Shown: positions 181 to 16,782, counted from the stretch's first letter. The stretch: 64,000 bases of DNA from Sphingomonadales bacterium (GCA_027483465.1 JAIXUQ010000108.1:49178-113177); one strand, 5' to 3'. Notes: generated by a model from the sequence alone, not told the origin. A program made the numbers and translations.

Positions 181-1914
181 GTGGCAACACAAGCGACTCC
201 AATTGCGGTCCAGCAACCGTCCTTTCTCGACCTTTGCCCAGTTGCCGCCGCCGTTGAATCCATGGCGAGCTCGGGCATCGACGAGCGTGGCGCGATCTTC
301 ACGCGCCGCGAAGTGGTCGACTTTGTTCTGGATTTGGTAGGCTACACCCCCGACAAGCCGCTGCATCGGAAGAAGCTCCTCGAACCGTCGTGCGGTCATG
401 GCGACTTTCTACTGCCGGCTATTGACCGCTTGCTGACTGCCTGGACGCGCGCCGGAAGCTCTGAACCATACAAGGCATTAGCGCCTGCAGTTCGTGCTGT
501 AGAGCTGCACCGCTCGTCGGCCGCTACCGTCCATTTGGCGGTGGTCGAAAGGCTGCTAAGTGCCGGCATTAGCTCTGCTGCCGCCGAGGCCATCGCCGAC
601 ACCTGGATCGTGCAAGGCGATTTCCTCCTCCTGCCCCTCGACAGCGATTTTGACACCATCGTGGGAAACCCGCCCTACATCAGGCAGGAGATGATCCCAG
701 ACGTGCTGATGGCCGAATATCGGTCTCGCTATCGGACGATCTATGACCGAGCAGACATCTACATCCCCTTCATCGAACGGTCCGTTTTGTCTCTGACAGA
801 AGGCGGGCAGGTTGGGTTCATTTGTTCCGATCGGTGGATGAAAAACAAGTACGGCGGTCCTCTGCGCCAGCTCATCGCCGATAAGTTCCATCTGAAGACC
901 TACGTGGATATGGTCGACACGCCGGCCTTCCTCGTGGACGTGGTTGCATACCCTGCCATCACCGTCATCGGGCGCGAGAAGCCTGGCGCGACGCGCATTG
1001 TCTCACGGCCAAACATCGACGCCGCAGAGCTAAGCACACTTGCAGCGACGATCATCGCCACGGCACCGCCGCCACTGGCCTCGACCGTCCGGGAGATCCA
1101 CGGCGTGACCGCCGGCGCGAGCCCATGGATTCTGGATTCCAGCGATCAGCTCGACCTTGTTCGCCGCTTGGAACGCGACTTCCCCACCATTGAGGAAGCC
1201 GGCTGCAAGGTCGGCATTGGCGTCGCGACTGGCGCGGACAAGGCCTTCTGCGGCCCGTTCGACAAGCTCGATGTTGAGCCCTGTCGCAAACTTCCAATGG
1301 TGACAACGAAGGACATTGCAACCGGGACCGTGGCCTGGCGGGGTATGGGCGTCGTCAATCCCTTTGGTGACGACGGTAAGCTCGTCGACCTTGTCCGCTA
1401 CCCTCGTCTGAAGGCATACCTAGAAGCTCGCCGGGACCAAATCGACAAGCGGCACGTCGCCCAAAAATCGCCCATCAACTGGTATAGAACCATCGATCGC
1501 ATTTATCCGGAAATTGCGGCCAAGCCAAAGCTCCTGATTCCCGATATCAAGGGCGCGGCCAACGTCGTGTACGAAGATGGCCATCTTTATCCTCACCACA
1601 ATCTATATTTCATCACGTCTGACACTTGGGACACGCGTGCTTTGCAGGCTGTCTTGATGTCGGGCATTGCACGCCTGTTCGTGGCGACCTATTCCACCAA
1701 AATGCGGGGTGGATATCTGCGCTTTCAGGCGCAGTATCTCCGTCGCATTCGGTTGCCGCGCTGGCAGGATGTTCCGGCCAATCTCAAGGGCAGGCTTGTT
1801 CAGGCTGCTGGCGCCGGCGATCTCGACGAGTGTAATGAGGCGGCGTTCGAGCTGTATGGGCTGAGCAGCCGAGAATGCGCGGCCTTGGGGGGCAGTGGGG
1901 ACAATGGCACTTGA
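181..1914 (+). CDS. N6-adenine DNA methyltransferase, type II (PaeR7I/TaqI/Eco57I-like gamma-class)
   Basis: 577-aa ORF. AdoMet motif I-like [11 protein letters not shown] lies upstream of catalytic motif [12 protein letters not shown] (NPPY). Its 3' end overlaps the downstream endonuclease gene by 11 nt. The start (GTG 181) is uncertain; ATG 262 is an alternative. Confidence 0.85.
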
Positions 1915-2641
1915 TCTAGCCGATTACGAGCGGAAGGCACGCGAAGCCACCATGGTCTTCTGGGGCAACCGGGAGAAAGCGCGCCAGAAGCAGATTGAGG
2001 CCGGTAAGGCCGACCAGGGCGAACGCGCCGGCGTCACTGGCGGCAAGAACATGGACGGCTTTCTGAGCCTGATCATCGACATCATTCAGGCAAATGGCCC
2101 TGCCACTGCGCAAGTCCATCTGCAGCGATCCGTGCTTTGCCTGCCCGGGTATTTTCGGCCGACGAAGCTGTGGGACGTGCTCGTACTGAACCGCAACCAG
2201 CTGATTGCCGCAATCGAGCTGAAGAGCCAAGTTGGCCCTTCGTTCGGGAACAACTTCAATAATCGCACGGAAGAGGCGATCGGCACCGCGCACGATCTTT
2301 GGACAGCCTATCGCGAGGGAGCGTTCGGCAACCAACCAAGGCCGTTCGTGGGCTGGTTGATGATGGTCGAAGATGCACCGGAGTCGCGCCGGCCGGTCAC
2401 CGACCGTTCGCCTCACTTCCCGGTTTTCCCGGAGTTTCAAAAGGCCTCATACCTCAATCGATATGACATACTTTGCCAGCGCTTGGCGAAGGAGCAACTT
2501 TATGGGTCGGCTACAATTCTTGCTTCACCTCGGACGGCTTCAGCAACGGGCGACTATTCTGAGTTATCCGGCCTCACGAGCCTTAAGACCTTCGTAACCA
2601 CGCTGGCGGGTCATATGGCTGCCGAGGCCGCAAGAGCATAA
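1904..2641 (+). CDS. Type II restriction endonuclease, XhoI/PaeR7I family
   Basis: 245 aa counted from ATG 1904. Blocks [21 protein letters not shown] and [29 protein letters not shown] match my memory of the XhoI/PaeR7I family. Size and position directly after an NPPY methyltransferase fit an R-M pair. Needs HMM confirmation. Confidence 0.7.
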
Positions 2642-2715
2642 CATCGTCCGATGCGGCGCCTCCGCTACTGGCGTGATGCGAATACGCCGTTTACAAACAA
2701 TTCGGGGAAATTTGA

Positions 2716-4719
2716 GTGGGTGTGGAGGCGGTGATCAGACTTCCTGTTCTAGAGCGTCTGCAGATCAAGGGGTACCAATTGTATCCCGGCTTGGCGAGTG
2801 CCGGGGGCATCGATGTAGCGTTCGATCGCGGGGCTTGGGTGATCATTGGCACCAACGGTTTGGGCAAAAGCACTCTTTTGCTTCTCATCCGGCAAGCGCT
2901 GACAGGGGCTGCAGCTGTCACTAACGCTGGGCCGGCCGGCAACCGTTCAGACATTATTCCTACCGATCGCCGATTCTTTGCTACACGGGTCGCAGACGGT
3001 GCGCGGGGTGCTACCGTAACACTGTCGGTTAAGTTTGGCGCTCAGCTTCTGGTGATCTCGCGCCGGGTTGACGATTTAGTCCTAACATCATGTGAACTTG
3101 ATGGCACTCCTCTTCCTTGTGAAGCAGATCTAGAGGCAGCTTACCGTCAGACAATCGCTACCCTTATGGGAGTCAGCAGCTTTGCCGACGTTCTTCGAGT
3201 CTTGCGATACCTCGTTTTTGTGCTGGAGGATCGGGACGGTCTAATTTGGAGTCCTCAAGCGCAAACCGAAGTTTTTAGAGCATTGTTCGTCCCAGAACGG
3301 GCTGCAAAATGGCGAGAACTAGAAGCGGAAATCGTGTCGACTGACAGCGGCGCGCGAAACGCAAACTCACTACTTACGAGTATTCTCAAAAGACAAGAAA
3401 AAGAGCACAAAAAGATAGAAGGCGCTGCCGAAATACGCATGCAACTTGCGTCGCTTGCGGGGGAGCAGGATCGAGATGAGGCGCTTGAGCTAGAGTTGCT
3501 CAAGGCCCGTGATGCTGCGGAAGACCGGCGCGTCGATGCTCGGACTGCCCTTCGCCAAAGGGAAGAGGAAAGCGAAGGTAAACGACGCGGTTACGAACGA
3601 CTGAAATTTAACGCGCTACGGCAGGCATTTGGCGACTTGCCCAATAGCGAGCAGTACCTGTTTATCAAGGTGTTGACGGAACGCATTTGCTCTTCTTGCG
3701 GGCAGGAGGCTGATGAGCTCGCAGCAGAGTTTGAACGTCGACGGAGCGAGAAGCTATGCGCTGTCTGTGGCAAGAAGAAGCCGGTTGATGACACTATCGT
3801 ATCGGCTGAGGCCTTCAGCGAAGAGCGGGCGTCTCAGGCATATGCTGGATGGGTTGCAGCCGAGGAGCAGGTTGCCAATGCTCGGGAAACTCTGTCGTTG
3901 GCGGAAGCTGAATTCGATCAGTTAGCTGCGCAGATCATTCAACTTCGTACAGCGCTGGATATGCGCGCGCGTGAAATGCGGAATCTGCAGCGGAAGCTGC
4001 CGGTAGATGAGCGGCAAGGTGCCCGGGATTTGGACGAGACGATGCTCCTGCGAGAGCGGGTTGTCCAATTTCGTTCGGAACGCGAGCATGCTGAGAATGC
4101 GCTGGAGGAATTGCTTCGAACCGCGCGAATGGCTGTTGAGGCAACCAAGGACAAGATTAGTGAAGTATTCTCCCATTATGCCGATCAGTTTCTGCACGAG
4201 AAGTTTCGCCTAGTCTATTCCCCTGATCGTAGAACAGTAGGCCAGACTGGCAAGTCACTCGAATTCCCTTCCTTCGAGTTGGAACTTACGAGCGGTGCGA
4301 CAGAAGGCAGGTCTACGCGGCGCAATGCAAGTCAGGTTTCGCTCTCCCAGCGAGAGTACCTAGACTATGCTTTTCGCATGGCGGTCATGAGCGTCATCGC
4401 CACTGACAGCGGCACGTTCGTTATCGATGGGCCTGAGGGCTCACTCGATTCCGTTTTCGCGCGCAGGGCAGGTCAAATGCTAGAGAGCTATGCCAACGCC
4501 GGCGGGGGAGAGGGCAACAGACTGATCGTTGCGTGCAACTTGGTCGACACACAACTCATACCCATTCTGCTGCGTGGAGAGAGCGGTCCTCCGAGCGAAA
4601 GGCGCGTTATCAACCTCCTCGGGTTAGCTACTCCATCCGCCGCGCTTGATGCTCTGCGTCCGGAGTATGAGGAAGCATATCGTCGCGTCATCGCTAACGC
4701 AGGGCCGGATGGGAAATGA
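2716..4719 (+). CDS. SMC/Rad50-like ABC ATPase with a long coiled-coil insert carrying CxxC-x19-CxxC (LmuB-like / ABC-3C ATPase candidate)
   Basis: 667 aa. N-terminal Walker A is GTNGLGKST (2848-2874). A roughly 280-aa E/R/A/L-rich segment follows. Signature-like SLSQRE and Walker B/D-loop FVIDGPEGSLD lie near the C-terminus. CSSC...CAVC is at 3688-3768. The start is GTG 2716, with other GTGs at 2722 and 2731. The stop overlaps the next ATG (ATGA at 4716-4719). Confidence 0.8.
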   Translation: MGVEAVIRLPVLERLQIKGYQLYPGLASAGGIDVAFDRGAWVIIGTNGLGKSTLLLLIRQALTGAAAVTNAGPAGNRSDIIPTDRRFFATRVADGARGATVTLSVKFGAQLLVISRRVDDLVLTSCELDGTPLPCEADLEAAYRQTIATLMGVSSFADVLRVLRYLVFVLEDRDGLIWSPQAQTEVFRALFVPERAAKWRELEAEIVSTDSGARNANSLLTSILKRQEKEHKKIEGAAEIRMQLASLAGEQDRDEALELELLKARDAAEDRRVDARTALRQREEESEGKRRGYERLKFNALRQAFGDLPNSEQYLFIKVLTERICSSCGQEADELAAEFERRRSEKLCAVCGKKKPVDDTIVSAEAFSEERASQAYAGWVAAEEQVANARETLSLAEAEFDQLAAQIIQLRTALDMRAREMRNLQRKLPVDERQGARDLDETMLLRERVVQFRSEREHAENALEELLRTARMAVEATKDKISEVFSHYADQFLHEKFRLVYSPDRRTVGQTGKSLEFPSFELELTSGATEGRSTRRNASQVSLSQREYLDYAFRMAVMSVIATDSGTFVIDGPEGSLDSVFARRAGQMLESYANAGGGEGNRLIVACNLVDTQLIPILLRGESGPPSERRVINLLGLATPSAALDALRPEYEEAYRRVIANAGPDGK

Positions 4720-5366
4720 TTGAGGAAATCGATCAGCCTACCCGGCTAAGGACGCGATTGCTCGTCATGCTGGCCTGTCTCGAACGGGCCGGCATTTCGC
4801 CAGTGGCTGTTGATCAGCTTCATGCGTTCGTCTTTTTCGCCGACGTTATGAGTCCGCTCTGGAGCCTAGAGCCGTTGAAGGGCTCGGTTCTCAAGCGGCG
4901 GGATGGACCCTTCTATAAAGAAGTCCAGGTGGCACTTGATGAGTTCGTTGCTTGTGGCCTGGTTGATGTTGTTTCTTTGGATTATGAGTTGGCGGATGAT
5001 ACGTCTGCCAGGTTGTCTGCCAGTTTTCGGATTATCCTGCCTCGGGCGGATCATGTACTTTCGGTCGTGCGCGCGATGCCGGATGAAGCTGACTGGGAGC
5101 GGTTCTTAGAGCAGCTTGCTTTCCTCTTTGCCGAGATTGCAACGGATCGCCGTGATGAGGCTGTTGAGGTCGATGCGACATACCAAGCAGGTGTGGACGA
5201 GCGAGTCGTCGACTTTGCTGAATGGCGAGCAGCCGGTGAAGCTGATCATTCCGTAAGAGCAGCACGGCGACTGCAAGCTTACGCGCCGAAGGGTGTAACT
5301 CTCAATCAGGCCGAACAGCTCGTTCTGTACATGCGCCTCGTCAAAAGGAAGGCGAGTGGTAGCTGA
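4716..5366 (+). CDS. Hypothetical 216-aa acidic protein; candidate middle/adaptor component (LmuC-like) of the three-gene system
   Basis: The ORF is translationally coupled on both sides (ATGA with the ATPase gene, 11-nt overlap with the next gene). I could recognise no catalytic motif. The N-terminal LLVMLACLERAGISPVAVDQLHAFVFFAD looks like a helical or winged-helix-type segment. The functional assignment is by position only. Confidence 0.55.
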   Translation: MIEEIDQPTRLRTRLLVMLACLERAGISPVAVDQLHAFVFFADVMSPLWSLEPLKGSVLKRRDGPFYKEVQVALDEFVACGLVDVVSLDYELADDTSARLSASFRIILPRADHVLSVVRAMPDEADWERFLEQLAFLFAEIATDRRDEAVEVDATYQAGVDERVVDFAEWRAAGEADHSVRAARRLQAYAPKGVTLNQAEQLVLYMRLVKRKASGS

Positions 5367-6435
5367 GCTTGAGTTTGGGGGCATCGCTGAAGACGAACTC
5401 CGGGCCTTCATGGCGACAACACCTGACTTCGATGACGCAGATATTCCAGCTGCGGCGCGATTCAGTCGCGCCGTCGCAGACCTGCTTTCTAAGAGGCAAG
5501 CTGCGGGAGAGCAGTTTCCGCTGGCTGTCTTCTTAATGAGTGACAGCCTTGCAGCCGACGTAAGAGAGCGAAATACCGAGCATGTCCCACTCTTGGCGAA
5601 TGGCAATGACCCAATTGGCGCTCGCATTTGGTTAGCTCAGGCCCAAGTTAGAAATGCTTACGCCCTCGCGACGCCGCTCAGCGATGCAGCAGAAGCTTTC
5701 CAAATGGTATCGACTGGCGGGTTGAGCAACCGTCCCGCCATTGTCGTCGACGGGCGGGCGGCCACCTGGCACGCGAGCCTCTATCCGCGTGGGCTGGCTT
5801 TCCCGGAGATGTGGTTGAGAATGGATTTGAGCGATGGACCTATTGCGGAGGCGGACCTTAAGGCGACCATCCATCGCTTCTGGTATCAAGGGTTGAGGAC
5901 GCCCGACGTAGCCCGTCAAAGCCCCATCAAAATCTGGAAGTCAGCTGCCGATGGTTGGCCCGAGCAGGGGCCAGAGGGCCGGCTACAGGGACGCCTCCGC
6001 GACGTTTTGTTTGGCGCCTACCCGCGTCGCAAGATCCGAGCAGAGGTTAAGAACGAAGAGGGACGGGCAGACATATTCATTGTCGGCCATGCAACCGCCG
6101 CCAGCGGCGTGCCGGCACAAGTCACTGACTGGGTGCTGGAGCTCAAGGCGCTATGCGACAAGACGACGAACGGTGGCAACGTTGATGAGACCACGGTGCG
6201 TGCCGCGGTAACGAAGGGCGTTGCGCAAGCAACCCTCTATCGCGACACCCAGAACGGGGTTCAAGCAGCTGTCTGCTGTTTTGATATGCGCAGTACCGAT
6301 GAAGACGATGAAGCATGCTTCGCTCACGTCAAAACGGCGGCAGAAGCGCGAGAGGTCAGATTGTGGCGCTGGCCACTCTTTAGAGCTGCCGATGATGCTC
6401 GTATGGCGAGCTTCGCCAGTCTCAATCAACCCTAA
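5356..6435 (+). CDS. Protein with C-terminal PD-(D/E)xK nuclease core; candidate effector
   Basis: 359 aa. GTG start is preceded by AAGGAAGG. GRAD(239)IFIV, then WVLE(262)LK(264)A (nt 6070-6147), followed by QATLY, is the classic D...ExK arrangement. The N-terminal ~200 aa has no motif I can name. Confidence 0.65.
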   Translation: MVAELEFGGIAEDELRAFMATTPDFDDADIPAAARFSRAVADLLSKRQAAGEQFPLAVFLMSDSLAADVRERNTEHVPLLANGNDPIGARIWLAQAQVRNAYALATPLSDAAEAFQMVSTGGLSNRPAIVVDGRAATWHASLYPRGLAFPEMWLRMDLSDGPIAEADLKATIHRFWYQGLRTPDVARQSPIKIWKSAADGWPEQGPEGRLQGRLRDVLFGAYPRRKIRAEVKNEEGRADIFIVGHATAASGVPAQVTDWVLELKALCDKTTNGGNVDETTVRAAVTKGVAQATLYRDTQNGVQAAVCCFDMRSTDEDDEACFAHVKTAAEAREVRLWRWPLFRAADDARMASFASLNQP

Positions 6436-7753
6436 ACGTTAGGAGTGTCTCTGCCAGTTCAGCTCGGCCGCCCTGCTGCGGCGAAGCTCGCATTGATCGG
6501 CAAGGTTCGCTGCCAAGCACCTCAAATCCCAGGTCAGCAGCCTCTTCCGTGAGAACGGCCGCAACAGGCACGTCCACGCCGGCGTACCTGCTATCACCCA
6601 CAACCATGTACACCCGGCCGCCGCTCGATAGCTTTGCGCGGAGCCCCTCAAGCACACACCGCATGTCCTCAAAATATGCGTCCACCATCTCGGGGATCGC
6701 GCTATTCCAGAGAACTGACCTGACCTGCCGAAGTTGATCGATTGTTCTAATCAATGTTGGAGACACAGTTGGCCGTGTCGAAAACGATCGCTTTATTTGC
6801 ACATGGCTACGGAGCGTCGACTCCCTCAAACGACGATTTGCCCCCCCGCTCGACAAATATCCGCCTGTCCAAAGCTCAATGTTGTACACGTCTGTGTAAT
6901 CGAAAGAATTGGGATAGGGGGGCGAGAAAACGCTTAGATCATGCTTACCTAAGCTGTGAACGAGTTGACGGCTGTCTCCGCGATAAATATTATAATCTAA
7001 GCGGGGACGACCACCGTAGCGGCGCACTTGGTACGTTGCCCTGAGGCATGCGTCATGGAATGCAGTATCGACTGCTGACGCATCCACCGGTCGCGCCTGC
7101 CATCCGCGGCGGTACCGTCGGCCCTTCCCGCTAATGAAAGCATTGCTGACCGACACGGTGATCGAAGCCAGCATTACTCTGAAAAACCTCCGAGCTATTA
7201 CGTCTTCCAAGGTTTCAATGACATCGCTGTATGCTGCAAGCCGCCTAGCAACGGGCAGCCAGAATAGAAAGCGGTCTTTCCCTTCCGCTTCAACGAAGGT
7301 CGCAGGTGCAGAAGAGAACGGAGCCGACACAGCTCTTTCCGCCACGTCGACGCGACCCACCACTTGGCTGAAAGCGTCTTCAAGAATACCATCCGGATAC
7401 GAGCTCAGTTTAGCCTCAATGAGGTCAGCCAAGAACGGATTTACTTCGATGGTAGAGGGTGCAACATTCAGGAACTGACATGCCAAGGCTGTGGTACCAG
7501 AACCCCCAAATGGATCTGAGCATGTCTCAACAGTTCGCCCCAAATCGGCCGCGGTCTCATCGACCGCTCGCTTTACCAATTCAGGTGCGAAAGCTTCTTT
7601 GAATCGTTTCCAATCCTGAAATGCGATTTCAGGCGTGCCTGCATTGGTCGACAACAGGAGCGGTGTGCGCTCCTGCACCCAATCATCAAAACCTAATGTT
7701 GGCTTTGGCGAAGCGGTATTAGCGGCAGAGGCCCTGGGGCCCTCCTCGCTCAT
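6422..7753 (-). CDS. DNA methyltransferase (N6-adenine or N4-cytosine), motif order I then IV
   Basis: 443 aa. DPFGGSGTT (motif I) lies near residue 80 and FSPPYPNSFDY (motif IV, SPPY) near residue 278. GGAG sits 7 nt before ATG 7753. The 3' end overlaps the convergent nuclease gene by 14 nt. Confidence 0.8.
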   Translation of the reverse strand: MSEEGPRASAANTASPKPTLGFDDWVQERTPLLLSTNAGTPEIAFQDWKRFKEAFAPELVKRAVDETAADLGRTVETCSDPFGGSGTTALACQFLNVAPSTIEVNPFLADLIEAKLSSYPDGILEDAFSQVVGRVDVAERAVSAPFSSAPATFVEAEGKDRFLFWLPVARRLAAYSDVIETLEDVIARRFFRVMLASITVSVSNAFISGKGRRYRRGWQARPVDASAVDTAFHDACLRATYQVRRYGGRPRLDYNIYRGDSRQLVHSLGKHDLSVFSPPYPNSFDYTDVYNIELWTGGYLSSGGANRRLRESTLRSHVQIKRSFSTRPTVSPTLIRTIDQLRQVRSVLWNSAIPEMVDAYFEDMRCVLEGLRAKLSSGGRVYMVVGDSRYAGVDVPVAAVLTEEAADLGFEVLGSEPCRSMRASPQQGGRAELAETLLTFRVD

Positions 7754-8101
7754 CGCTCCGTGTCCATCAATATCATCACCACCTCAAGAGACGCGCAGCC
7801 GTTATCGCCCTTTGTCAAGGCAATCCAGCATTTTTTCAGCGTCGTCCGAGGTGGCGTCTTCGTCACCTCACGATTTTGCAGGATTTCTCATGGTAGTGAG
7901 AAGATGGCTAACTCCAAACAGGGAACTACAAAAAATGTAGCCCCTTCGCCTTAAGGGGACCTGCGTTGGCCGGTATGGGTGAGCAACTCGAACAGCGCAT
8001 GGGCTGGAGGGTCGTCGCCGGCGCCTTCGGCTTAGCGATTGGGTTCGGCGGAACACAGCTCGCTGTGCCGCCGCAAGACTCATCGCCTGAGCGCCTGCCA
8101 A

Positions 8102-8120
8102 GTCTTGCACGGTGCAAGAC
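8102..8120. repeat. 19-bp perfect palindrome GTCTTGCACGGTGCAAGAC (copy 1 of 5; its flank orientation is inverted relative to copies 2-5)
   Basis: Read directly from the sequence. The outer flank, read on the minus strand, is TTGGCAGGCGC. This resembles the TTCGGCGCC tail of copy 5. Confidence 0.9.
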
Positions 8121-8220
8121 ATCAACGGCGGCCCTACCGATGGTTCTATTGCCGAGTATGCGACGTTCAGACCCGGGTCAATCGGTCGGCAATGGCGTAC
8201 ACAGTCGCGCCATCGTTCAT

Positions 8221-8610
8221 ATGTGGCACGCAGCTGGAAAGATGTTACAGGCGATCATGGCTCCGGGGCGCTTCGTTCGAATGCTTGTGCTGCTGACCAT
8301 GCTTGCGGTCGGCATTGGCTCGACGACGGCAGCTTTTGCGTGCGCGACGATAGCTGCACCGATTGCAATGTCGGAGATGCCTGCCAACCGCTGCGGCGAG
8401 CACGACCGCGGCAGTTCCAATGACGTAGCTAAGGGCGGAGTGTGCGCGCTGGCATGTCCTGCCGGCTGCTTGATGGCCATGCCGACCAGCGTGGCAGAAG
8501 CATCGATCCATCGCGATACCAAGTTCAACGCGATCGGCAATTTGCATCGCCTCACTGGCAAGGAGTTCGGTCCTGAGCCGCCCCGGCCACGAACAGCGAG
8601 CGCCTCTTGA
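8221..8610 (+). CDS. Hypothetical Cys/His-rich exported or membrane-anchored protein
   Basis: This is the C-terminal part of ORF 7966-8610. From ATG 8257 it reads MAPGRFVRMLVLLTMLAVGIGSTTAAFA (signal-like), followed by CATIA...RCGEHD...GGVCALACPAGC. Candidate starts are ATG 8221, 8242 and 8257. The 7966 extension crosses palindrome copy 1 and looks non-coding. Confidence 0.4.
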   Translation: MWHAAGKMLQAIMAPGRFVRMLVLLTMLAVGIGSTTAAFACATIAAPIAMSEMPANRCGEHDRGSSNDVAKGGVCALACPAGCLMAMPTSVAEASIHRDTKFNAIGNLHRLTGKEFGPEPPRPRTASAS

Positions 8611-8639
8611 AGACTTTGTCCAATCTCTAGGAGCTCAAC

Positions 8640-8789
8640 ATGAAGAAGCTTTTTCTGACAGCCGCAATCCTCCTGGCCAGCAGCACAGCCGCTTATGCCG
8701 CTGAGCCGGGAGCCGTTGCCAAAGCGGCCGCAGCCTGCTGCGACGCAGTCGCTGCATGCTGTGATGCAGCGATGGACTGCTGCGACTAA
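8640..8789 (+). CDS. Small secreted Cys-rich peptide (49 aa; three CCD motifs)
   Basis: Too short for the ORF track. AGGAG lies 6 nt before ATG 8640. It reads MKKLFLTAAILLASSTAAYA|AEPGAVAKAAAACCDAVAACCDAAMDCCD* and has a Sec-type signal with an AYA-A cleavage motif. Six Cys occur in 29 mature residues. Confidence 0.5.
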   Translation: MKKLFLTAAILLASSTAAYAAEPGAVAKAAAACCDAVAACCDAAMDCCD

Positions 8790-8908
8790 GGTGTGAGCCT
8801 CAGGGAAGAGGAGGCGTCGGGTCGAGAGGCTCGGCGCCTCTTTTGTAGTTGCCTTGGGACAGCCTTCAAAGAGGCGCCGAATCTGGCGCCCCTACCGGAC
8901 CCGGCAAA

Positions 8909-8927
8909 GTCTTGCACCGTGCAAGAC
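8909..8927. repeat. 19-bp perfect palindrome GTCTTGCACCGTGCAAGAC (copy 2)
   Basis: Read directly. It lies 120 nt after the Cys-rich peptide stop and 25 nt before the 3' end of the MerR-family gene. It is followed by AATTCGGCC. Confidence 0.9.
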
Positions 8928-8951
8928 AATTCGGCCGTCAAGTCGAGCGAT

Positions 8952-9356
8952 CTAGCGTCCGGGCATCGGCGCCAGAGCCTCGATGATCCGACAGTCGGCG
9001 ACGGCCCCGCCCTTGCAAGAGGTGATCACCGCCTTCAGCTCGCGGCGCAGCGCGGTCAGGTCGGCCAGCTTGCGTTCGACCTCCGCCAGGTGGGTGTGGG
9101 TGATCGCGTCGATGCTGGCGCAGTCGCCTTGACTGTCATCGGAAAGGGCGAGCAGGGCGCGCACCTGTTCGACAGAGAACCCCAGGTCGCGCGCCCGCCG
9201 GATGATCGGCAGCCGCGCCAGCTCCGCCGCGCCATAGCTGGGGTAGTTGCCTTGCGTTCGCGGCGGTGCCGGCAGCAATCCGATGCGCTCATAGTAGCGA
9301 ACGGTTTCGACCTTGGTGCCCGTCGCGCGGGCCAGCTCGCCGATCGTCGTTGCCAT
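8952..9356 (-). CDS. MerR-family heavy-metal-responsive transcriptional regulator
   Basis: 134 aa. The N-terminal HTH TIGELARATGTKVETVRYYERIGLL is present. A dimerisation helix and Cys residues (GDC...SCKGGAVADC) occupy the positions used for metal binding in CueR/CadR/MerR-type sensors. The start shares 1 nt with the stop of the upstream receptor gene (TGATG). Confidence 0.85.
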   Translation of the reverse strand: MATTIGELARATGTKVETVRYYERIGLLPAPPRTQGNYPSYGAAELARLPIIRRARDLGFSVEQVRALLALSDDSQGDCASIDAITHTHLAEVERKLADLTALRRELKAVITSCKGGAVADCRIIEALAPMPGR

Positions 9357-11383
9357 CAGTCATGCTCCTTCTCGCCGCCGAACATCAAGCGGACACCGCC
9401 ATTCAGCACGAACCCGTCCGTCGGCGCCCAGGCATCGACGGTCCAGCGGCCGTCCGGAGCCCGCGATGGCCGCACCAGCGGGTCGAACTTGGTCTGGCGG
9501 ACATTCAGGATGTTTTCGGCGTTGAGGAACAGCCTGAGCGGGCCCAGCACCACCTCCACGAACGCGCCCAGCTCGACATAGGGCTTGCTGACCGAGCGGA
9601 ACGGGTTGTCATCCAACGTCTGACGGCCGGTGTAATAGGCCTCCAGCCCGATGCGGCCGCGGCCGTGTTCTTCCCACATGGCGACGATGCCGGCGGTGTC
9701 ACGCGGCACCCTTGGCACGCGCCGCCGAGCGCCGCCTTCCGGATCGGGCTCGGTCGCATCGACATGGACGTAATTGCCGGTGATGGTGAACGCCTCCCAG
9801 CGGTAGCGTGCCACCAGCTCCACACCGCGTGTCCGTGTGGCGCCGGGGGCGTTGATTAGTCTTACGCGGTCGGGCCCGGCATTCTGCACCTGCACGGCGC
9901 CGTCGATGTCGGACCCGAACAGTGTCGCGCTGGCCGCGAACCCGCCGCTGCGATAGCCGATGTCCAGCGATGCGGTCTGCGCTGTCTCCGCCTGCAACCC
10001 AGTGAGAGGATCGAGGCGCGTCAGGCCGGTCGCCTCAATCTGCTCGACAAAGGGCGTCGGTGCGAAGAAGCCGCGTCCCCAAGAGGCCCGGAACGTCCAG
10101 GGTCCGGGCTTGTAGAGCGCCGAGACGCGCGGGCTGAGGAAGGTACCATATTCGCTGTGCCGGTCGAGCCGAGCACTCGCCGACAGGGTAAGGCGGTCGG
10201 CAATGTCGCCTTCCACCTGGCCGAACAGCCCCGGCACAACAAAATCATAGTCGAAATTGCCGAACTGCTCGGAGTGGTAGCCGTCGTGCTGCACGGCCGC
10301 GCCGGCCAGCCAGTCAACTCCTCCGGCCCTGCCGCTCAACGACAGCTCGCCAATGCTGGTCTCGTGGCGGTCGTCTTCGATCACCTCCCCGAACTGGTGA
10401 GAATGCTTCTGCCGCATCAACGAGCCACGGGCATGAAGGGTCACGGCATTCCCGAGCGGCGTCTCCCCGACCAGCCCTGCGTCGAAGCGCGTGGTGTCGA
10501 GCGCTTCCACGAACGGCCGAACGTCCGGCGCCTTGCGCCCCGGCAACGTGCCGCCGATGCGCTGCTCGGTCATGGCACCCGCGGTCAGCAGCAGCTTGGC
10601 ACCGTTCGATCCTTCAGCAAACAGGCGCGGTCGCACGGTCCAGCGCCGGTAGAAGGGCATGTCCGCCCAGCCATCGCCATCGAGGTCGTTGGCATCCTGC
10701 CGATGAAAGCCGCCGGTGACCGAGACACCGACCGTATCACTCGTCGGCATCGCGGCATAGGCGGTCAGGTCCTGCCCGTCCCTGCTGGTCAGGTTGACCA
10801 GCGCTTCGGCTTCGGCGACATCGGCCGGCCGGCGCGACACGAAGTTGATGACGCCGCCCAGCGCCGACGCGCCGTAGAGAGCCGATGCCGAACCCTTGAT
10901 GACCTCGACCTGGCCAAGGTCGGTCGGCGGTATCTGCAGGATGCCGGCGGACGATGCCTGCCCGCCGTAAAGCGGCAGGCCGTCGGCGAGTAGCTGGGTG
11001 TAACGCCCGTCCATGCCCTGCATGCGGATGTTGGAAGACCCCAGTGATGGCGAGGTGACCTGCACCCGCACGCCCGGCGTTTCGGCGACCAGCATCGCGA
11101 CATTGCCGGGCGTCATGAGGATCTTCTCCTCGATCTCCTCGCGCTCGATCACCTCGACGCGGATCGCCTCGTCGTCGGCACTGCGCCCCGAACGCGTCGC
11201 CTGGACGACGATCTCCTCCTCTGCCTCCTCTACTGGTGCAACCTGGGCCAGCGCCGGAACGGTGCCTAATGCACCTGCAATGCTGGCGACAAGCGTTAGT
11301 TGACGGGCGGCAGCAGGGGAAAACACGGTTCTCAAGAGGTGCTCCAGACAGAATGCTCCGGCGGTCGCAGAGCGTGCTGGCAC
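9356..11383 (-). CDS. TonB-dependent outer-membrane receptor
   Basis: 675-aa ORF. A signal-like ...LTLVASIAGALGTVPALAQ is followed by the plug region EEIVVQATR...GVRVQ...SNIRMQGMDGRYTQLLADGLPLYG and a long beta-barrel-type sequence. The true start is probably TTG 11335 (GGAG 6 nt upstream), because a promoter-like element abuts 11383. Confidence 0.85.
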   Translation of the reverse strand: MPARSATAGAFCLEHLLRTVFSPAAARQLTLVASIAGALGTVPALAQVAPVEEAEEEIVVQATRSGRSADDEAIRVEVIEREEIEEKILMTPGNVAMLVAETPGVRVQVTSPSLGSSNIRMQGMDGRYTQLLADGLPLYGGQASSAGILQIPPTDLGQVEVIKGSASALYGASALGGVINFVSRRPADVAEAEALVNLTSRDGQDLTAYAAMPTSDTVGVSVTGGFHRQDANDLDGDGWADMPFYRRWTVRPRLFAEGSNGAKLLLTAGAMTEQRIGGTLPGRKAPDVRPFVEALDTTRFDAGLVGETPLGNAVTLHARGSLMRQKHSHQFGEVIEDDRHETSIGELSLSGRAGGVDWLAGAAVQHDGYHSEQFGNFDYDFVVPGLFGQVEGDIADRLTLSASARLDRHSEYGTFLSPRVSALYKPGPWTFRASWGRGFFAPTPFVEQIEATGLTRLDPLTGLQAETAQTASLDIGYRSGGFAASATLFGSDIDGAVQVQNAGPDRVRLINAPGATRTRGVELVARYRWEAFTITGNYVHVDATEPDPEGGARRRVPRVPRDTAGIVAMWEEHGRGRIGLEAYYTGRQTLDDNPFRSVSKPYVELGAFVEVVLGPLRLFLNAENILNVRQTKFDPLVRPSRAPDGRWTVDAWAPTDGFVLNGGVRLMFGGEKEHD

Positions 11384-11385
11384 AG

Positions 11386-11416
11386 TTGCTAGACCCTGTA
11401 GCTGCTACGGGGTCAA
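11386..11416 (-). promoter_or_regulatory. MerR-type promoter/operator candidate for the receptor-merR-like operon
   Basis: The minus strand reads TTGACC-ccgtagcagctacagggtc(19)-TAGCAA. The 19-bp spacer is typical of MerR-family promoters. The spacer carries the dyad CCCTGTAGC-T-GCTACGGGG with 1 mismatch. Confidence 0.5.
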
Positions 11417-11466
11417 GAGCCTGCTGACTGTTGGCGATCTCTTCGAGCTGAGCCCGGCGGCCCCTC

Positions 11467-11497
11467 TTGACCCTGTAGTGACTAGAAGGTGCACAAC
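11467..11497 (+). promoter_or_regulatory. Second, divergent MerR-type promoter/operator candidate
   Basis: TTGACC-ctgtagtgactagaaggtg(19)-CACAAC. It resembles, from memory, the PbrR/CadR-type operator TTGACTCTATAGTAACTAGAGGGTG. The -10 is weak. It lies 33 nt upstream of TTG 11530. Confidence 0.4.
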
Positions 11498-11529
11498 GCT
11501 CGCACAGCCTGCGAATCAGGGAGCATGTC

Positions 11530-12369
11530 TTGCGCGTTCGATTGTCGACGAAACTGCCGATCACGGCAGACGAGGCCGCAGCGCTGGTCGCCACGCCGGC
11601 GCTGCTGAACCACATAGCCGCGCCCCTGCTCCGGTTCATGGCCCTCGACCCGACTGTTTTACCCGAGGTTCGGGCCGAACGCCGCTATCATGTCCGTGTG
11701 CTACTCGGCGGGGTGCTGCCGCTTGGCCGCCAGTGGATCGACATCTCGCGTCACGACGCCCAGGACGGTGGCTTTCGGATGCGCGATAACGGCTCAGGCG
11801 ATCTGGCGCGCCGCTGGGATCACTGGATCACCATCACACCCGACAACGCCGGCGGCTGCACTTACACGGACGATGTCGAGGTCGACGCAGGGCTACTAAC
11901 CCCGTTCGTCTGGAGCTTCGCAAGGCTGTTCTATGCGCATCGGCAGCGGCGGTGGCGCGCGCTTGCGGCCAAAGGCAGTGTGGGGGCGAACGAGCTGGCG
12001 CGGCGCGCGGCCTGGCACCTGCGTCTCAATGTTGAGCTTGCTGCGTTCCGAGCGGCGCGCGAGCGCGGCGACGTACTTTCGCAGTGGCAGTCACTGGAGC
12101 GCGCGCATATCCTTTCCCAGATCGAGGTGCGGCCACACCTGCATGCGCACTGGCTTATGCTCGGCCTTTCTGTAAGGCTTGGCGGCGGCTGGGAGAACAT
12201 CGGTCAGCTTGTCCGGCTCGTGCTGGCGCCGCTTGGATCGCTGTCGGGCCGCATTCCGTGGGGCAACACCGGCCGCTCCACGGTAAGCGCGTTTACGCCC
12301 ATGCCCATCCCTGCCGATTTGCGCGATGTGCTCCCACCTACGATCGTCAAGCTGCCGGACCCGCTCTGA
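11530..12369 (+). CDS. Hypothetical protein; N-terminal SRPBCC/START-like region fused to a C-terminal DUF3703-like His-rich helical region
   Basis: 279 aa. GGGAG lies 6 nt before TTG 11530. The N-terminal half has the general look of SRPBCC ligand-binding proteins. The C-terminal ERAHILSQIEVRPHLHAHWLMLG resembles DUF3703. Both assignments are from memory and are weak. Confidence 0.45.
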   Translation: MRVRLSTKLPITADEAAALVATPALLNHIAAPLLRFMALDPTVLPEVRAERRYHVRVLLGGVLPLGRQWIDISRHDAQDGGFRMRDNGSGDLARRWDHWITITPDNAGGCTYTDDVEVDAGLLTPFVWSFARLFYAHRQRRWRALAAKGSVGANELARRAAWHLRLNVELAAFRAARERGDVLSQWQSLERAHILSQIEVRPHLHAHWLMLGLSVRLGGGWENIGQLVRLVLAPLGSLSGRIPWGNTGRSTVSAFTPMPIPADLRDVLPPTIVKLPDPL

Positions 12370-12406
12370 ACGTCAGCCGCTCAAGGGTGCCCTGGAGGGC
12401 GGACAG

Positions 12407-12425
12407 CTCTTGCACCGTGCAAGTC
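12407..12425. repeat. Palindrome copy 3: CTCTTGCACCGTGCAAGTC (15-bp core perfect)
   Basis: Read directly. It lies 38 nt after the stop at 12369 and upstream of arsR. It is followed by AATTCGATG. Confidence 0.9.
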
Positions 12426-12509
12426 AATTCGATGATTGCAGAAACATCGAGACATTTTGCCGCGAAGCTGATATTTCGACGTGCATCGAATCGTCGACGG
12501 GAGTTCCAA

Positions 12510-12869
12510 GTGGATCAGCCTCGTGCCGTTGCCGCGCTCGCAGCGCTCGCCCAAGATACCCGACTAGCCGTCTTCCGGCTGCTCGTGCGCGCAGGCCCGG
12601 ACGGAATGATCGCTGGCGCCATTGCTGAGCACATTGGCACCCCCGGATCGACGATGTCCCATCACCTCGCAACGCTGGAGCGTGCCGGCCTTGTTGTCTC
12701 CGGGCGGGAGAGCCGGCTGATCCGCTACACCGCAAACTTTGAAGGCATGCGCGGCCTGCTCGGCTTCCTCATGGCAGACTGTTGCCAGGGCAATCCCGCG
12801 CTTTGCGACAATTTGCTGGCCGTCGCCGCCTGCCAACCTGCCCTCGCCGCAACCCATGGGAACGTCTGA
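12510..12869 (+). CDS. arsR: ArsR/SmtB-family arsenite-responsive repressor
   Basis: AALAQDTRLAVFRLL...STMSHHLATLERAGLV is the ArsR winged HTH. The C-terminal CCQGNPALC (CC-x6-C) resembles the C-terminal As(III) site type described for Acidithiobacillus ArsR. GTG 12510 with GGGAG upstream gives 119 aa; ATG 12432 is the alternative start. The stop overlaps the arsC ATG. Confidence 0.8.
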   Translation: MDQPRAVAALAALAQDTRLAVFRLLVRAGPDGMIAGAIAEHIGTPGSTMSHHLATLERAGLVVSGRESRLIRYTANFEGMRGLLGFLMADCCQGNPALCDNLLAVAACQPALAATHGNV

Positions 12870-13297
12870 TGCCGACCGACATCATCATCTATCACAACCC
12901 GGAGTGCGGCACCTCGCGCAACACGCTGGCGATGATCCGCAATGCCGGCATCGAGCCGCATGTCGTCGAGTATCTGAGGACGCCGCCGTCGCGGGTAATG
13001 CTAGTTGATCTGATCACTCGGGCCGGCCTGACGCCTCGTCAACTTCTCCGCGAAAAGGGCACCCCTTTTGCTGATCTTGGGCTTGGCGACGACAGCCTGA
13101 GCGATGACGCGCTCATTGACGCGATGTTGGCGCATCCGATCCTGATCAATCGACCGATTGTGGTCTCGCCGCTCGGTGTCCGACTTTGCCGTCCGTCCGA
13201 AGTGGTGCTCGACCTGCTGCCGTCGCCCCAGCTTGGGGCCTTTGCCAAGGAAGATGGCGAGCAGGTGATCAACGATGCAGGTCGGCGGCTTGACTGA
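12869..13297 (+). CDS. arsC: Arsenate reductase, glutaredoxin-coupled (R773 ArsC type)
   Basis: 142 aa starting [27 protein letters not shown]-x-CGTSRN is the catalytic Cys loop of Grx-type ArsC. TGATG overlap with arsR. Confidence 0.9.
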
Positions 13298-13322
13298 AGC
13301 CTCGGCACAGCAAGGACAATCT

Positions 13323-14393
13323 ATGCACGCTCCGGCTAAGCCCGAACGCCTGTCGTTCCTCGACCGCAACCTGACGCTGTGGATCTTTGCGGCCATGGCG
13401 CTGGGCATCGGCCTAGGGACCCTGTTTACCGGCTTGCCGGCGGCGCTCGAACGCCTGTCGTTGGGCACGACCAATGTTCCAATCGCCATCGGTCTCATCC
13501 TGATGATGTACCCGCCGCTCGCGCGCGTTCGCTATGAGGAACTGCCGGCGGTATTCGCCGACAAGCGCATCCTCGCCATCTCGCTGATCCAGAACTGGCT
13601 GATCGGCCCGGTGCTGATGTTCGCTCTGGCCGTCATCTTCCTGCGCGACCAGCCTGAATACATGACCGGTCTGATCCTTATCGGTCTCGCACGCTGCATC
13701 GCCATGGTGCTGGTCTGGAACCAGCTCGCCAAGGGCGACAACCAGTATGTGGCCGGGCTGGTAGCGTTCAACTCGATCTTCCAGGTGCTTTTCTTTAGCG
13801 TCTACGCCTGGTTCTTCCTGTCGGTGCTGCCGCCGCTGTTCGGCCTGCAAGGCAGCGTCGTCGACGTCAGCTTCTGGACGATCGCGGAGGCGGTGCTGAT
13901 TTACCTCGGTGTGCCGTTCCTTGTAGGCTTCCTGACCCGGCGCAGCCTGGTCGCCCGCAATGGCTCCGACTGGTATGAGCGCGAGTTCCTGCCGCGCATC
14001 GGGCCGATCACGCTAGTTTCACTACTGTTCACCATCGTCGCCATGTTCAGCCTGAAAGGGGGCGATGTCGTACGGCTGCCGTTCGATGCGCTGCGCATCG
14101 CTATCCCGCTGACGATATACTTCTTCGTCCAGTTTCTGATCAGCTTCTGGATGGGCAAGCTGATCGCGGCCGACTATCCGCGCACCACCGCCGTTGCCTT
14201 CACCGCGGCCGGCAACAACTTCGAGCTGGCCATTGCCGTTGCCATCGCAGCGTTCGGGCTCGCATCGCCGGTTGCCTTTGCCGCCGTCGTCGGACCATTG
14301 GTTGAAGTGCCGGTGCTGGTACTGCTGGTTTCAGTGGCGCTCCGGCTTGGCCGGCGCTGGTTTCCGGCTACGGCGCCGGGGGCGACACGCTGA
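13323..14393 (+). CDS. acr3: ACR3-family arsenite efflux permease
   Basis: 356 aa from ATG 13323. A polytopic membrane protein with [14 protein letters not shown]...[14 protein letters not shown]...GLARCIAMV. The R-C-I-A-M-V motif is typical of ACR3. Confidence 0.9.
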
Positions 14394-15139
14394 TGGATCG
14401 CCTGCGCACCCTCGTCGATCCCGGTCACCTGCCGGCGCTTGATCCGGCCTTCGTGCACCGGCGCCCGGCCCTGGGGCTTGGGCCGGACAATCCGCCGCCG
14501 CGCATCCTGCTGCTTTATGGCTCGCTCCGTGAGCGCTCCTACTCGCGGCTCTGTGTCGAGGAAGCAGCGCGGCTGCTGCAATTCTTCGGCTGCGAGACCC
14601 GGATCTTCGATCCGTCCGACCTGCCGCTGCCCGATCAGGTTGCCAACGACGATCACCCGGCAGTCGCCGAGCTTCGCGCGCATTCGATGTGGTCGGAAGG
14701 CCATGTCTGGTGCAGCCCGGAACGTCATGGCCAGGTAACCGGCATCATGAAGACGCAAATCGACCATCTGCCGCTGAGCTATGGCGGGATGCGACCGACG
14801 CAGGGGCGCACGTTGGCGGTAATGCAGGTGTCGGCCGGCTCGCAATCGTTCAACAGCGTCAACACGCTGCGCGTCCTCGGGCGGTGGATGCGGATGTTTA
14901 CCATCCCCAACCAGTCGAGCGTCGCCAAGGCGTTTGCCGAGTTCGACGACGCCGGACGTATGAAGCCGTCGGCTTATTATGACCGCATTATCGATGTGAT
15001 GGAGGAGCTGGTGCGGTTCACGGTGCTGCTGCGTCCGCATGCGGCGCAGCTGGTCGATCGTTATTCGGAACGCAAAGAAACCGCGGTGGCGTTAGATCCA
15101 GCGCGCCATCTTTCGACGATCGCGACAAAAGGTAAGTAG
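14393..15139 (+). CDS. arsH: ArsH, NADPH-dependent FMN reductase family
   Basis: 248 aa. [17 protein letters not shown]...[22 protein letters not shown] is the characteristic ArsH core. The ATG overlaps the acr3 stop. Confidence 0.9.
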
Positions 15140-15155
15140 CAGGGGCAAGGCGACG

Positions 15156-15174
15156 GGCTTGCACCGTGCAAGAC
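15156..15174. repeat. Palindrome copy 4: GGCTTGCACCGTGCAAGAC (15-bp core perfect)
   Basis: Read directly. It lies 17 nt after the arsH stop and 82 nt from the 3' end of merR. It is followed by CCCTCGGCC. Confidence 0.9.
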
Positions 15175-15255
15175 CCCTCGGCCCAAGAACGCCTGCACGG
15201 TCGGATTGTATTGCGATAGTCGGCGTAGGCCATAGCCACTAAACTACGAACCCAA

Positions 15256-15711
15256 CTAAAGTAGGGAACGCGCTGATGGATCCGCAGGCGGCTGCCCGTT
15301 GTCGTGCAGCGCGTCCATAATCGGGCAAACCGGCGCGTCTCCGCCTCCGCACTGATCCGATATTGCAGCAAGCGACTGTTCGAGGCGGCGAAGATCCCTG
15401 ATTCGATTGCGCACGTCCTGAAGGTGGCGTTCGGTTAGCGCGAGAATGTTGCCGCAGGTGTAATCGTGAGATTGCGCGAGATTGGCGAGACTGCGCACAT
15501 CCTCGACCGAGAAGCCCAGCTCCCGCGCGCGTAGGATAAAACCAAGTCGGGCCTGATCGTCTTTGGAATACAGACGATGCCCGCTTGCGGTGCGGCCGGG
15601 CGGGCGCATCAAGCCAATATTCTCATAGTACCGGATCGTCTCGATATTGCAGCCGTGGTGCCTTGCGAGCGCGCCCCGCTTCAGCCCGTCCACGCCACCT
15701 GGGACTGCCAT
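15256..15711 (-). CDS. merR: MerR, Hg(II)-responsive transcriptional regulator
   Basis: The HTH is GALARHHGCNIETIRYYENIGLM. Cys occurs in YTCGN and in CGGGDAPVC (C-x8-C), as in the MerR metal site. ATG 15711 is preferred because the longer ORF (to 15762) would run through the mer operator. Confidence 0.85.
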   Translation of the reverse strand: MAVPGGVDGLKRGALARHHGCNIETIRYYENIGLMRPPGRTASGHRLYSKDDQARLGFILRARELGFSVEDVRSLANLAQSHDYTCGNILALTERHLQDVRNRIRDLRRLEQSLAAISDQCGGGDAPVCPIMDALHDNGQPPADPSARSLL

Positions 15712-15722
15712 AAAATCACCCC

Positions 15723-15753
15723 TTGCACCTGTAGCTACTACAGAGGCTACAGT
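15723..15753 (+). promoter_or_regulatory. mer operator/promoter (PmerT) with 19-bp spacer
   Basis: TTGCAC-ctgtagctactacagaggc(19)-TACAGT. The dyad CTGTAG-CTA-CTACAG (15729-15743) lies inside the spacer. It sits between divergent merR and merT, as in classical mer operons. Confidence 0.6.
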
Positions 15754-15784
15754 GAGCTTCACATGGAAGCGAGAGTGGAGTGCA

Positions 15785-16180: not shown

Positions 16181-16189
16181 GAGACATAC

Positions 16190-16513: not shown

Positions 16514-16548
16514 CTGCTGTTCTTCCCGGCAGCCCCAAGACTTTTGCC

Positions 16549-16767: not shown

Positions 16768-16782
16768 GGCTGAAGGAGCTGC

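Follow-up and report, generated by a model that had tools for sequence, protein, structure and literature searches.

Lamassu defence systems, among which DdmABC is counted, consist of three components, namely the effector LmuA, the small middle protein LmuC and the ATPase LmuB, which are encoded in the order effector–middle–ATPase, and LmuA carries its effector part at the N-terminus and an LmuB-binding domain at the C-terminus. In the short form of LmuB, CxxC motifs are present in zero, one or two copies and the Walker B motif is non-canonical (Haudiquet et al., bioRxiv 10.1101/2025.04.02.646746). The locus described here lies in a 64,000-nucleotide stretch of DNA from a Sphingomonadales bacterium (GCA_027483465.1, JAIXUQ010000108.1:49178-113177), hereafter the window, and comprises three coupled genes (the triad; 2716-6435, + strand) for a coiled-coil ATP-binding cassette (ABC) ATPase, a middle protein and a PD-(D/E)xK nuclease, which are met at their 3' end by a convergent gene for a DNA methyltransferase. 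An earlier note on this DNA had read the three genes as a candidate non-canonical system resembling Lamassu or the ABC-three-component (ABC-3C) systems, and had taken the methyltransferase as mere context. From the comparisons reported below, the four genes form one unit, for which the most apt name is that of a Lamassu-like ABC-ATPase restriction cassette coupled to a methyltransferase, with a putative function in restriction-modification (R-M).

The kinship with Lamassu resides in the ATPase, since LmuB profiles match 28/28 members of the window family, and these proteins resemble the short LmuB in their size of ~660 aa, in the shortness of their coiled coil, in carrying CxxC motifs and in a Walker B that is non-canonical. 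The double CxxC, which the earlier note had listed as a departure from Lamassu, thus falls within the range of the short form. The general plan is also common to both, with three components, a small helix-turn-helix (HTH)-like middle protein and a nuclease effector, although the middle protein is analogous to LmuC by function only. In contrast, the gene order here is ATPase–middle–effector, constant in all loci, and the nuclease core occupies the C-terminal part of the effector (aa ~205-340) behind an N-terminal domain; both departures had been named in that note and both persist across the family. Moreover, LmuA, LmuC, Pfam CTD and MC profiles match no member of the partner families. Of four features compared for Lamassu membership, the ATPase agrees and the other three do not, namely the architecture of LmuA, membership of the LmuC/MC family and the order of the genes. 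The initial assignment therefore stands as far as the LmuB-like ATPase is concerned, whereas the products of the second and third open reading frames (ORF2 and ORF3) fail the sequence tests for LmuC and LmuA. A near-obligate DNA methyltransferase sets the cassette further apart, the word methyltransferase having 0 occurrences in the published Lamassu survey. The proposed logic of an ATPase, a small middle protein and a PD-(D/E)xK effector is preserved as an architecture, but the predicted mode of action shifts from Lamassu abortive infection to methylation-coupled R-M, because a methyltransferase is found at every genome locus examined (n=32).

None of the profile libraries searched (Pfam, PADLOC, NCBIfam) places the triad in a described subtype. 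No triad protein rises above the Pfam threshold or is found in NCBIfam, and PADLOC recognises the ATPase family alone, as LmuB; therefore, a Lamassu call at such a locus would be made without partners, and the cassette family is probably invisible to present defence-system censuses. No description of the four-gene cassette was found in the literature searched, which did not include Krishnan et al. 2020, the likeliest place for one.

Other described systems share particular traits with the cassette. The CxC-ABC/DndE systems (PbeABCD-type) likewise combine a coiled-coil ABC ATPase that bears an apical Zn site with a nuclease and a small protein that binds DNA, and some of their neighbourhoods contain circularly permuted cytosine-N4 methylases (PMC10853773). 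PbeC profiles match 7/28 window-family ATPases, although LmuB profiles fit these proteins better than those of PbeC or DndD. However, DndE has two ribbon-helix-helix domains, the nuclease of those systems is an HKD-SF2 helicase fusion and their hook is CxC, whereas here the middle protein is modelled by AlphaFold2 (AF2) as winged-helix plus helical, the nuclease is PD-(D/E)xK with no HKD-SF2 gene in the cassette, and the cysteines are arranged as CxxC-19-CxxC. MADS shares an association with methylation and an ABC ATPase, MAD3, which is needed for restriction. In PADLOC, mad3 is the best match of the window ATPase (3e-12), over the head domain only: the profile has 374 positions and the ATPase aligns over residues 12-594 with the coiled coil skipped. 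MADS nevertheless comprises eight genes, mad1-8, over ~22 kb, with MAD6-8 mandatory and another composition, and the PADLOC search of the cassette returned weak mad3/mad8 matches at the ATPase level and no other mad gene. As an identity for the cassette, MADS was thus rejected, being an eight-gene operon whose similarity is confined to the ATPase heads. A stand-alone methyltransferase beside a restriction module whose nuclease and NTPase are different subunits is known from multi-subunit, ATP-dependent R-M systems of a Type II-like kind such as CglI/NgoAVII (M + R + N-ATPase), where the NTPase is superfamily 2 (SF2)/helicase-like and the nuclease belongs to the phospholipase D (PLD) family, unlike the ABC ATPase, winged-helix subunit and PD-(D/E)xK nuclease of the cassette. 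Finally, SbcCD/Rad50-Mre11, which has been proposed as the evolutionary origin of Lamassu, shares a zinc-hook coiled-coil ABC ATPase working with a nuclease. It differs in its Mre11/SbcD phosphoesterase, which is absent from the cassette, and in that the cassette has a far shorter coiled coil with four Cys per chain, has a linked methyltransferase and appears to be carried by a mobile element.

A four-gene unit conserved across phyla

ORF1 (2716-4719, +; GTG start, 667 aa) encodes the ATPase, ORF2 (4716-5366, +; ATG start, 216 aa) the middle protein and ORF3 (5356-6435, +; GTG start, 359 aa) the nuclease, and these coordinates and lengths were recovered as first reported when re-derived. By direct reading, the stop codon of ORF1 is fused with the start of ORF2 in the ATGA at 4716-4719, while the ORF3 GTG at 5356 and the ORF2 stop TGA at 5364-5366 give an 11-nt overlap, with a Shine-Dalgarno-like AAGGAAGG just 5' of the GTG. 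The same stop/start overlaps of translational coupling are repeated in ~30 further loci. An alternative database call for ORF3 gives 341 aa (P0021), the 359-aa start being called too, and the N-terminal 18 residues are conserved in part, with G8 almost invariant. The methyltransferase gene (6422-7753, −) is convergent and has a 14-nt 3' overlap with ORF3. The segment is A/T-richer than its surroundings, as had been observed, with a GC content of 56.1% in the cassette versus 65.1% in the whole window.

A nuclease-profile search, with one genome per species, yielded 32 genome loci, the neighbours of which were typed by tblastn. Their carriers belong to the Alpha-, Beta- and Gammaproteobacteria, Actinomycetota, Acidobacteriota and Chloroflexota and include one deltaproteobacterial symbiont, which amounts to at least five phyla. 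The order ATPase–middle–nuclease is constant in all 32 loci, and a methyltransferase homologue is present within the fetched flank of 32/32, abutting the nuclease gene in 30/32. Thus, the triad does hold together as a conserved unit, but this unit has four genes, and the methyltransferase formerly regarded as a neighbour is part of it. In 24 genome loci, L030 among them as a weak partial match, it is placed convergently against the nuclease gene, with 3' ends that commonly overlap, and in the earliest contexts fetched it occupies the same convergent position at 57-58% identity. Six loci from Actinomycetota, Gaiellaceae and Chloroflexota (L019, L020, L025, L027, L029 and L040) have it co-directional after the nuclease, and these co-directional enzymes form a separate subfamily of ~24% identity with the motif order unchanged. 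At L037 the gene is found on the upstream side of the ATPase gene, close to it and in divergent transcription, an upstream-divergent position found likewise at L099 and L106, and at L033 it is 3.3 kb from the nuclease. Triads with a co-directional or upstream methyltransferase are no further from the window triad than other distant triads.

The same association is seen from the side of the methyltransferase. A reverse search from this protein in metagenomes gave >535 relatives, the best 80 of which were taken; among these, the nuclease adjoins the methyltransferase in 58/63 loci whose flank is 1 kb or longer, and the full triad stands beside it in 42/47 loci where the flank reaches 3.8 kb or more. 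Five exceptions were noted, namely L078, with a divergent triad; L099, with a divergently transcribed triad; L106, where the ATPase end of the triad alone is visible, at the contig edge; L056, where nothing recognisable lies beside the methyltransferase; and L091, where another operon takes the place of the triad. Within the convergent clade, the pairwise-identity matrix of the methyltransferase correlates with those of the ATPase, middle protein and nuclease at r = 0.79-0.83, and the matrices of the triad proteins correlate among themselves at r = 0.87-0.94 (0.80-0.93 over all 27 loci). The linkage of the four genes is therefore near-obligate and two-way, and it is accompanied by co-divergence. 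The cassette is rare, with a few hundred protein clusters, and spread widely over phyla; Rhodovarius lipocyclicus CCUG 44693 and Sphingomonas trueperi 1770 are among its carriers.

Natural variants have lost parts of the cassette. A sibling contig from another sample, 99.5% identical to the window (L048, 8079-13329), has an IS66 insertion in the nuclease gene, consisting of two tandem IS66 elements (TnpA/TnpB/TnpC) at about codon 107 (window ~5675), with the methyltransferase intact; in this contig the restriction arm is naturally knocked out. In the Mesorhizobium ciceri isolate LMG 14989 (L014), the ATPase is frameshifted and the methyltransferase is again intact, and no intact triad beside a visibly broken methyltransferase was seen among the loci examined. 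Variants that have lost the restriction arm but kept the methyltransferase fit the logic of R-M. Frameshifts at L004, L022 and L026 were considered as co-decay and set aside, since these contigs look long-read assembled and the frameshifts are possible errors.

Components of the cassette

The product of ORF1 is a coiled-coil ABC ATPase of the SMC (structural maintenance of chromosomes)/Rad50/LmuB-like type. All 28 family members match the PADLOC LmuB model PDLC03859, the best with an E-value of 1.8e-22 and an alignment that runs end to end (residues 28-610 versus model positions 17-584 of 611); four more LmuB models are matched by 11-21 of the 28, and, besides the PbeC matches given above, mad3 is matched more weakly by 24/28. 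The window ATPase itself matches LmuB at 4.3e-9. It does not reach the curated thresholds of Pfam and NCBIfam, its sole Pfam match being a sub-threshold one to AAA_23, and sequence and profile comparison with PDB chains returned P-loop or coiled-coil noise alone, with nothing specific to LmuB, Rad50 or SbcC. Of the ABC hallmarks, Walker A, the signature-like motif SxSQxE, the Asp of Walker B and the SLD of the D-loop are invariant in the family. In the window protein, Walker A is GTNGLGKST (aa 45-53; 2848-2874, +), with G45, N47, G48, G50, K51 and T53 invariant in 28 sequences. The signature-like VSLSQRE (aa 541-547) and the deviant Walker B/D-loop FVIDGPEGSLD (aa 568-578) lie at 4336-4449 (+), and among their residues V541, S542, S544, Q545, E547, D571, P573, E574, S576 and D578 are invariant in the 28 homologues.

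The coiled coil carries in its middle a CxxC pair, CSSC (aa 325-328) and CAVC (aa 348-351; 3688-3768, +), in which C325, C328, C348 and C351 are invariant in the 28 homologues and the 19-residue spacer is constant, and a four-Cys zinc site is predicted at the coiled-coil apex. The position of the canonical catalytic Glu is occupied by Gly or Ala, and the family's invariant Glu comes two residues further on, as judged from alignment to the transporter MJ0796 (LADEP). Since the canonical catalytic Glu is displaced, the Walker B motif suggests that the ATPase is a slow ATP switch and not a motor. The motifs quoted in the earlier note for the ATPase and the nuclease are found at the residues stated there and, because they are invariant across 28 ATPase and 18 nuclease homologues, they are not due to chance. 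One ATPase homologue of 42% identity, P0045 from Azospirillum fermentarium, bears the NCBI name 'seryl-tRNA synthetase', a label that is presumably a coiled-coil artefact; every other named homologue of the three triad proteins is called 'hypothetical protein'.

The nuclease (5356-6435, +) has two domains in its AF2 model (pLDDT, i.e., predicted local distance difference test score, of 85), an N-terminal alpha/beta domain at aa ~30-200 and a C-terminal PD-(D/E)xK core at aa ~205-340. The core shows the alpha-beta-beta-beta-alpha-beta topology of restriction endonucleases at residues 206-310, with D239 at the beginning of strand 2, E262-x-K264 inside strand 3 and Q291 on the helix after it. Its motifs (6055-6240, +) are EEGRADIFI with D239, LELKAL with E262 and K264, and QATLY at aa 291-295 with Q291 and Y295, and E230, D239, E262, K264, Q291 and Y295 are invariant in 18 nuclease homologues, 16/18 of which also give a sub-threshold match to Pfam PDDEXK_9. 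The proposal that D239, E262-x-K264 and QATLY form a nuclease core is supported by invariant residues, modelled topology and sub-threshold profile matches. Foldseek gives weak matches to the nuclease domains of Mus81/XPF/Hef, Card1 and Cdn1. Against NCBIfam nothing was found, nor anything informative against PDB chains by sequence or profile, and the 18 members match no PADLOC LmuA model and no Pfam CTD family. A tblastn search with ORF3 gave no phage match and, among plasmids, one match, to an unannotated Burkholderia chromid. The N-terminal domain (window 5440-5960) has a confident fold with invariant LLxNGND and VVDxR motifs, to which Foldseek against the PDB and BFVD assigns no fold or family, and it may serve as a sensor or reader.

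The middle protein (4716-5366, +) is modelled by AF2 (pLDDT 72.7) as an N-terminal winged-helix-like domain, a linker and C-terminal helices. Foldseek matches of this model are all weak and comprise the winged-helix proteins RTP, PadR and TFIIE and, at 7e-4, chain 7yk3_B of the DarTG complex. The linker (aa ~144-175; window 5145-5240) is the sole low-confidence part (pLDDT 31-46) and holds the invariant RVVDFAEW motif, with D153, A154, R163 and D166-F-A-E169 invariant in this stretch and W170 nearly so; it resembles a conserved peptide for partner binding set within a flexible linker. ORF2 was matched by nothing in Pfam, PADLOC and NCBIfam or among PDB sequences, and the 17 family members scanned have no PADLOC LmuC or Pfam MC match at E<=1. 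When 1.84 billion representative proteins were searched by profile, 295 relatives were found, the full-length ones being stand-alone proteins of ~205-240 aa.

The fourth gene (6422-7753, −) encodes a circularly permuted N6/N4 DNA amino-methyltransferase of 443 aa, which is matched by Pfam N6_N4_Mtase at motif I and by PADLOC MTase_II PDLC03224 at 3e-42. Its profile matches in the PDB are beta-class/N6A-N4C DNA methyltransferases, the best at 5.3e-11 and covering the motif I region only, and with motif I ahead of motif IV the protein is circularly permuted relative to these beta-class enzymes. Motif I, which binds S-adenosylmethionine, is DPFGGSGTT (aa 80-88; 7490-7516, −; D80, P81, G84, G86 and T87 invariant), and the catalytic motif IV is SPPYPNSFDY (aa 277-286; 6896-6925, −; S277, P278, P279, Y280, N282, D285 and Y286 invariant), both over 32 sequences. 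An SPPY motif IV is commoner among N4-cytosine enzymes. Other conserved, non-catalytic stretches are FKEAFAPEL and GKGRRYR, and among the four genes conservation is highest in that of the methyltransferase, at a mean column identity of 0.50 versus 0.32-0.37.

Proposed mechanism and alternative explanations

A methyltransferase with intact catalytic motifs, a restriction-type PD-(D/E)xK active site and tight linkage between methyltransferase and nuclease are generic traits of R-M systems and are all found here, and the four-gene mobile cassette is, in our judgement, probably an ATP-dependent R-M-type defence system. We infer complex formation among the triad proteins, self-protection by methylation and a defence phenotype, which could be integrated as follows. 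The convergent permuted SPPY amino-methyltransferase would mark the host DNA, and the three coupled gene products would form one complex in which, by analogy with solved Lamassu complexes, a dimer of the LmuB/Rad50-like ATPase may bind a single middle subunit and a single nuclease. The ATPase would serve as a slow ATP switch with its zinc site at the coiled-coil apex, while the winged-helix middle subunit would touch DNA and tether its partners, possibly via the RVVDFAEW linker peptide. The C-terminal PD-(D/E)xK core of the nuclease would then be licensed when the complex meets unmethylated foreign DNA, and the mark may be read by the N-terminal domain of the nuclease, by the middle protein or by the methyltransferase acting as a subunit. 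A more specific proposal, which we put forward tentatively as a possibility short of being likely, is that the LmuB-like ATPase acts as the sensor of structures in foreign DNA and the host is spared through a dedicated N4-methylcytosine or N6-methyladenine (m4C/m6A) mark, so that the cassette would be a 'methylation-gated Lamassu' and represent an undescribed R-M class with a Lamassu-type SMC/Rad50-like complex as its restriction arm.

Several observations weigh against an R-M-type function. The Lamassu systems, to which the closest characterised relatives of the ATPase belong, act by abortive infection without methylation; no methylation- or DNA-sequence-reading domain was identified in the triad from AF2 models and Foldseek; the main-clade methyltransferases show no hypervariable segment of the target recognition domain (TRD) type, which is unusual for R-M families that diversify in specificity; and the matches of the ORF3 fold in Foldseek are weak, with a best E-value of 2.5e-3 and TM scores of ~0.2-0.3. 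Moreover, the pairing of methyltransferase and triad is not absolute, because two loci depart from it. In a metagenome-assembled genome (MAG) of Stenotrophomonas sp. (L036, 1242-10312), there is one convergent methyltransferase for two tandem triads, the first with the ATPase at 1242-3257, the middle protein at 3250-3942 and the nuclease at 3939-5153, and the second with the ATPase at 5283-7286 followed by the middle protein and the nuclease; the first triad is highly divergent, with LVMETPEASLD as its Walker B and a nuclease that was missed by tblastn. At L091 (7310-11474), a methyltransferase of 48% identity is convergent with another three-gene operon, which stands in place of the triad and ends in an 846-aa KaiC-like ATPase, and methyltransferases of this kind may be shared with another, uncharacterised module.

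The lack of a reader domain in the triad would fit a system like Type I/III R-M or BREX/MADS, in which the methyltransferase is a physical subunit that gives target recognition and the triad is recruited at unmodified sites. This arrangement also agrees with the methyltransferase being the most conserved component, with conserved non-catalytic regions, and with MAD3 being the best PADLOC match of the window ATPase. However, the convergent orientation implies that the methyltransferase has its own promoter, and one clade has swapped in the 24%-identical subfamily, in another orientation, while its triad is no more divergent. The single methyltransferase for two triads in L036 and the different composition of MADS, with its eight genes over ~22 kb, count in the same direction, and we consider a recognition subunit of this kind unlikely. 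Abortive infection of the Lamassu type, in which the LmuB-like complex would sense DNA ends or replication intermediates and set the nuclease free to destroy all DNA, is in our view improbable; here the methyltransferase would be an often co-transferred accessory, such as an anti-restriction or epigenetic passenger. The LmuB-like ATPase, its deviant Walker B and CxxC motifs as in short LmuB, and the small HTH-like middle subunit analogous to LmuC all point that way, but a mere passenger contrasts with a methyltransferase that is linked near-obligately in both directions and co-diverges with the triad, and with the complete absence of the term from the Lamassu survey. Furthermore, the LmuA, LmuC, CTD and MC profiles find no match, and the order of both the genes and the effector domains is inverted.

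A role outside defence seems very improbable. According to this explanation, the cassette would be a selfish addiction module, or an SbcCD/Rad50-like repair or maintenance module of integrative elements, with the methyltransferase in element-specific epigenetic regulation. Its sporadic distribution and its position as cargo resembling that of integrative and conjugative elements (ICE) or plasmids, beside a RES-Xre toxin-antitoxin pair and resistance genes, would be in keeping with such a role, as would the fact that R-M modules can act as addiction modules. Addiction behaviour is, however, compatible with defence; there is no Mre11/SbcD-type phosphoesterase, the nuclease is a PD-(D/E)xK enzyme of the restriction-endonuclease type, and defence genes are frequent neighbours at the other loci.

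As an R-M-type system, the cassette appears to unite SMC/Rad50-like immunity, known from Lamassu and Wadjet, with the epigenetic self-marking of R-M, BREX and MADS in four genes and ~5 kb. Should the nuclease complex with the LmuB-like ATPase be gated by methylation, SMC-type sensors would couple to self/non-self discrimination, beyond abortive infection, and the cassette would offer both a small clonable model of an ATPase that licenses a nuclease and a new enzyme pairing, in which a methyltransferase of the permuted SPPY kind goes with a PD-(D/E)xK nuclease that depends on ATP. In a 'methylation-gated Lamassu', an abortive architecture would have been turned non-suicidal, which would provide an evolutionary bridge from R-M to SMC-based immunity. 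The cassette would thus be a directly testable small link between SMC-type immunity and epigenetic self-marking.

Genomic setting

In the window, the genes follow one another in the order TraG_N, UvrD, RES-Xre, a C-protein with an XhoI R-M pair, the cassette, MerR and ars genes, and from the TraG_N and UvrD genes upstream the cassette appears to be cargo of a conjugative element. The XhoI-type Type II R-M pair lies directly upstream (181-2641, +) and consists of an Eco57I/TaqI_C-type methyltransferase (181-1914) and an XhoI-family endonuclease (1895-2641, +; Pfam 5e-97). On the parent contig (L044, 4454-7926), an HTH_3 controller-like gene and the RES-Xre toxin-antitoxin pair stand ahead of it. 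This pair was considered as a part of the cassette and ruled out, since the upstream neighbours differ at all other loci. Just downstream of the cassette (window 8000-20000; L044 14237-20424), the GC content climbs to 63%, and this part holds genes for a MerR regulator and a TonB-dependent receptor as well as a cluster for arsenic resistance (ArsR, ArsC, Acr3-type SBF and ArsH-like). A search for near-identical plasmids with the window matched the XhoI R-M part and nothing else, promoter and terminator scans gave background level, and a look for tRNA genes in the vicinity of the island turned up none.

Neighbours at the other loci include integrases, AbiEii, HEPN/NTase, reverse transcriptase (RT) and a radical-SAM HxsD cluster. 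Together with TraG, RES-Xre, the XhoI R-M pair and the ars genes in the window, they point to surroundings of mobile elements and defence genes, the latter as had been noted for this locus. At L033, where the methyltransferase is separated from the nuclease, the methyltransferase operon contains (8043-11206) a HATPase_c_3/histidine-kinase-like protein of 705 aa, a response-regulator receiver and a PIN-domain protein, an insert that may be an embedded accessory module.

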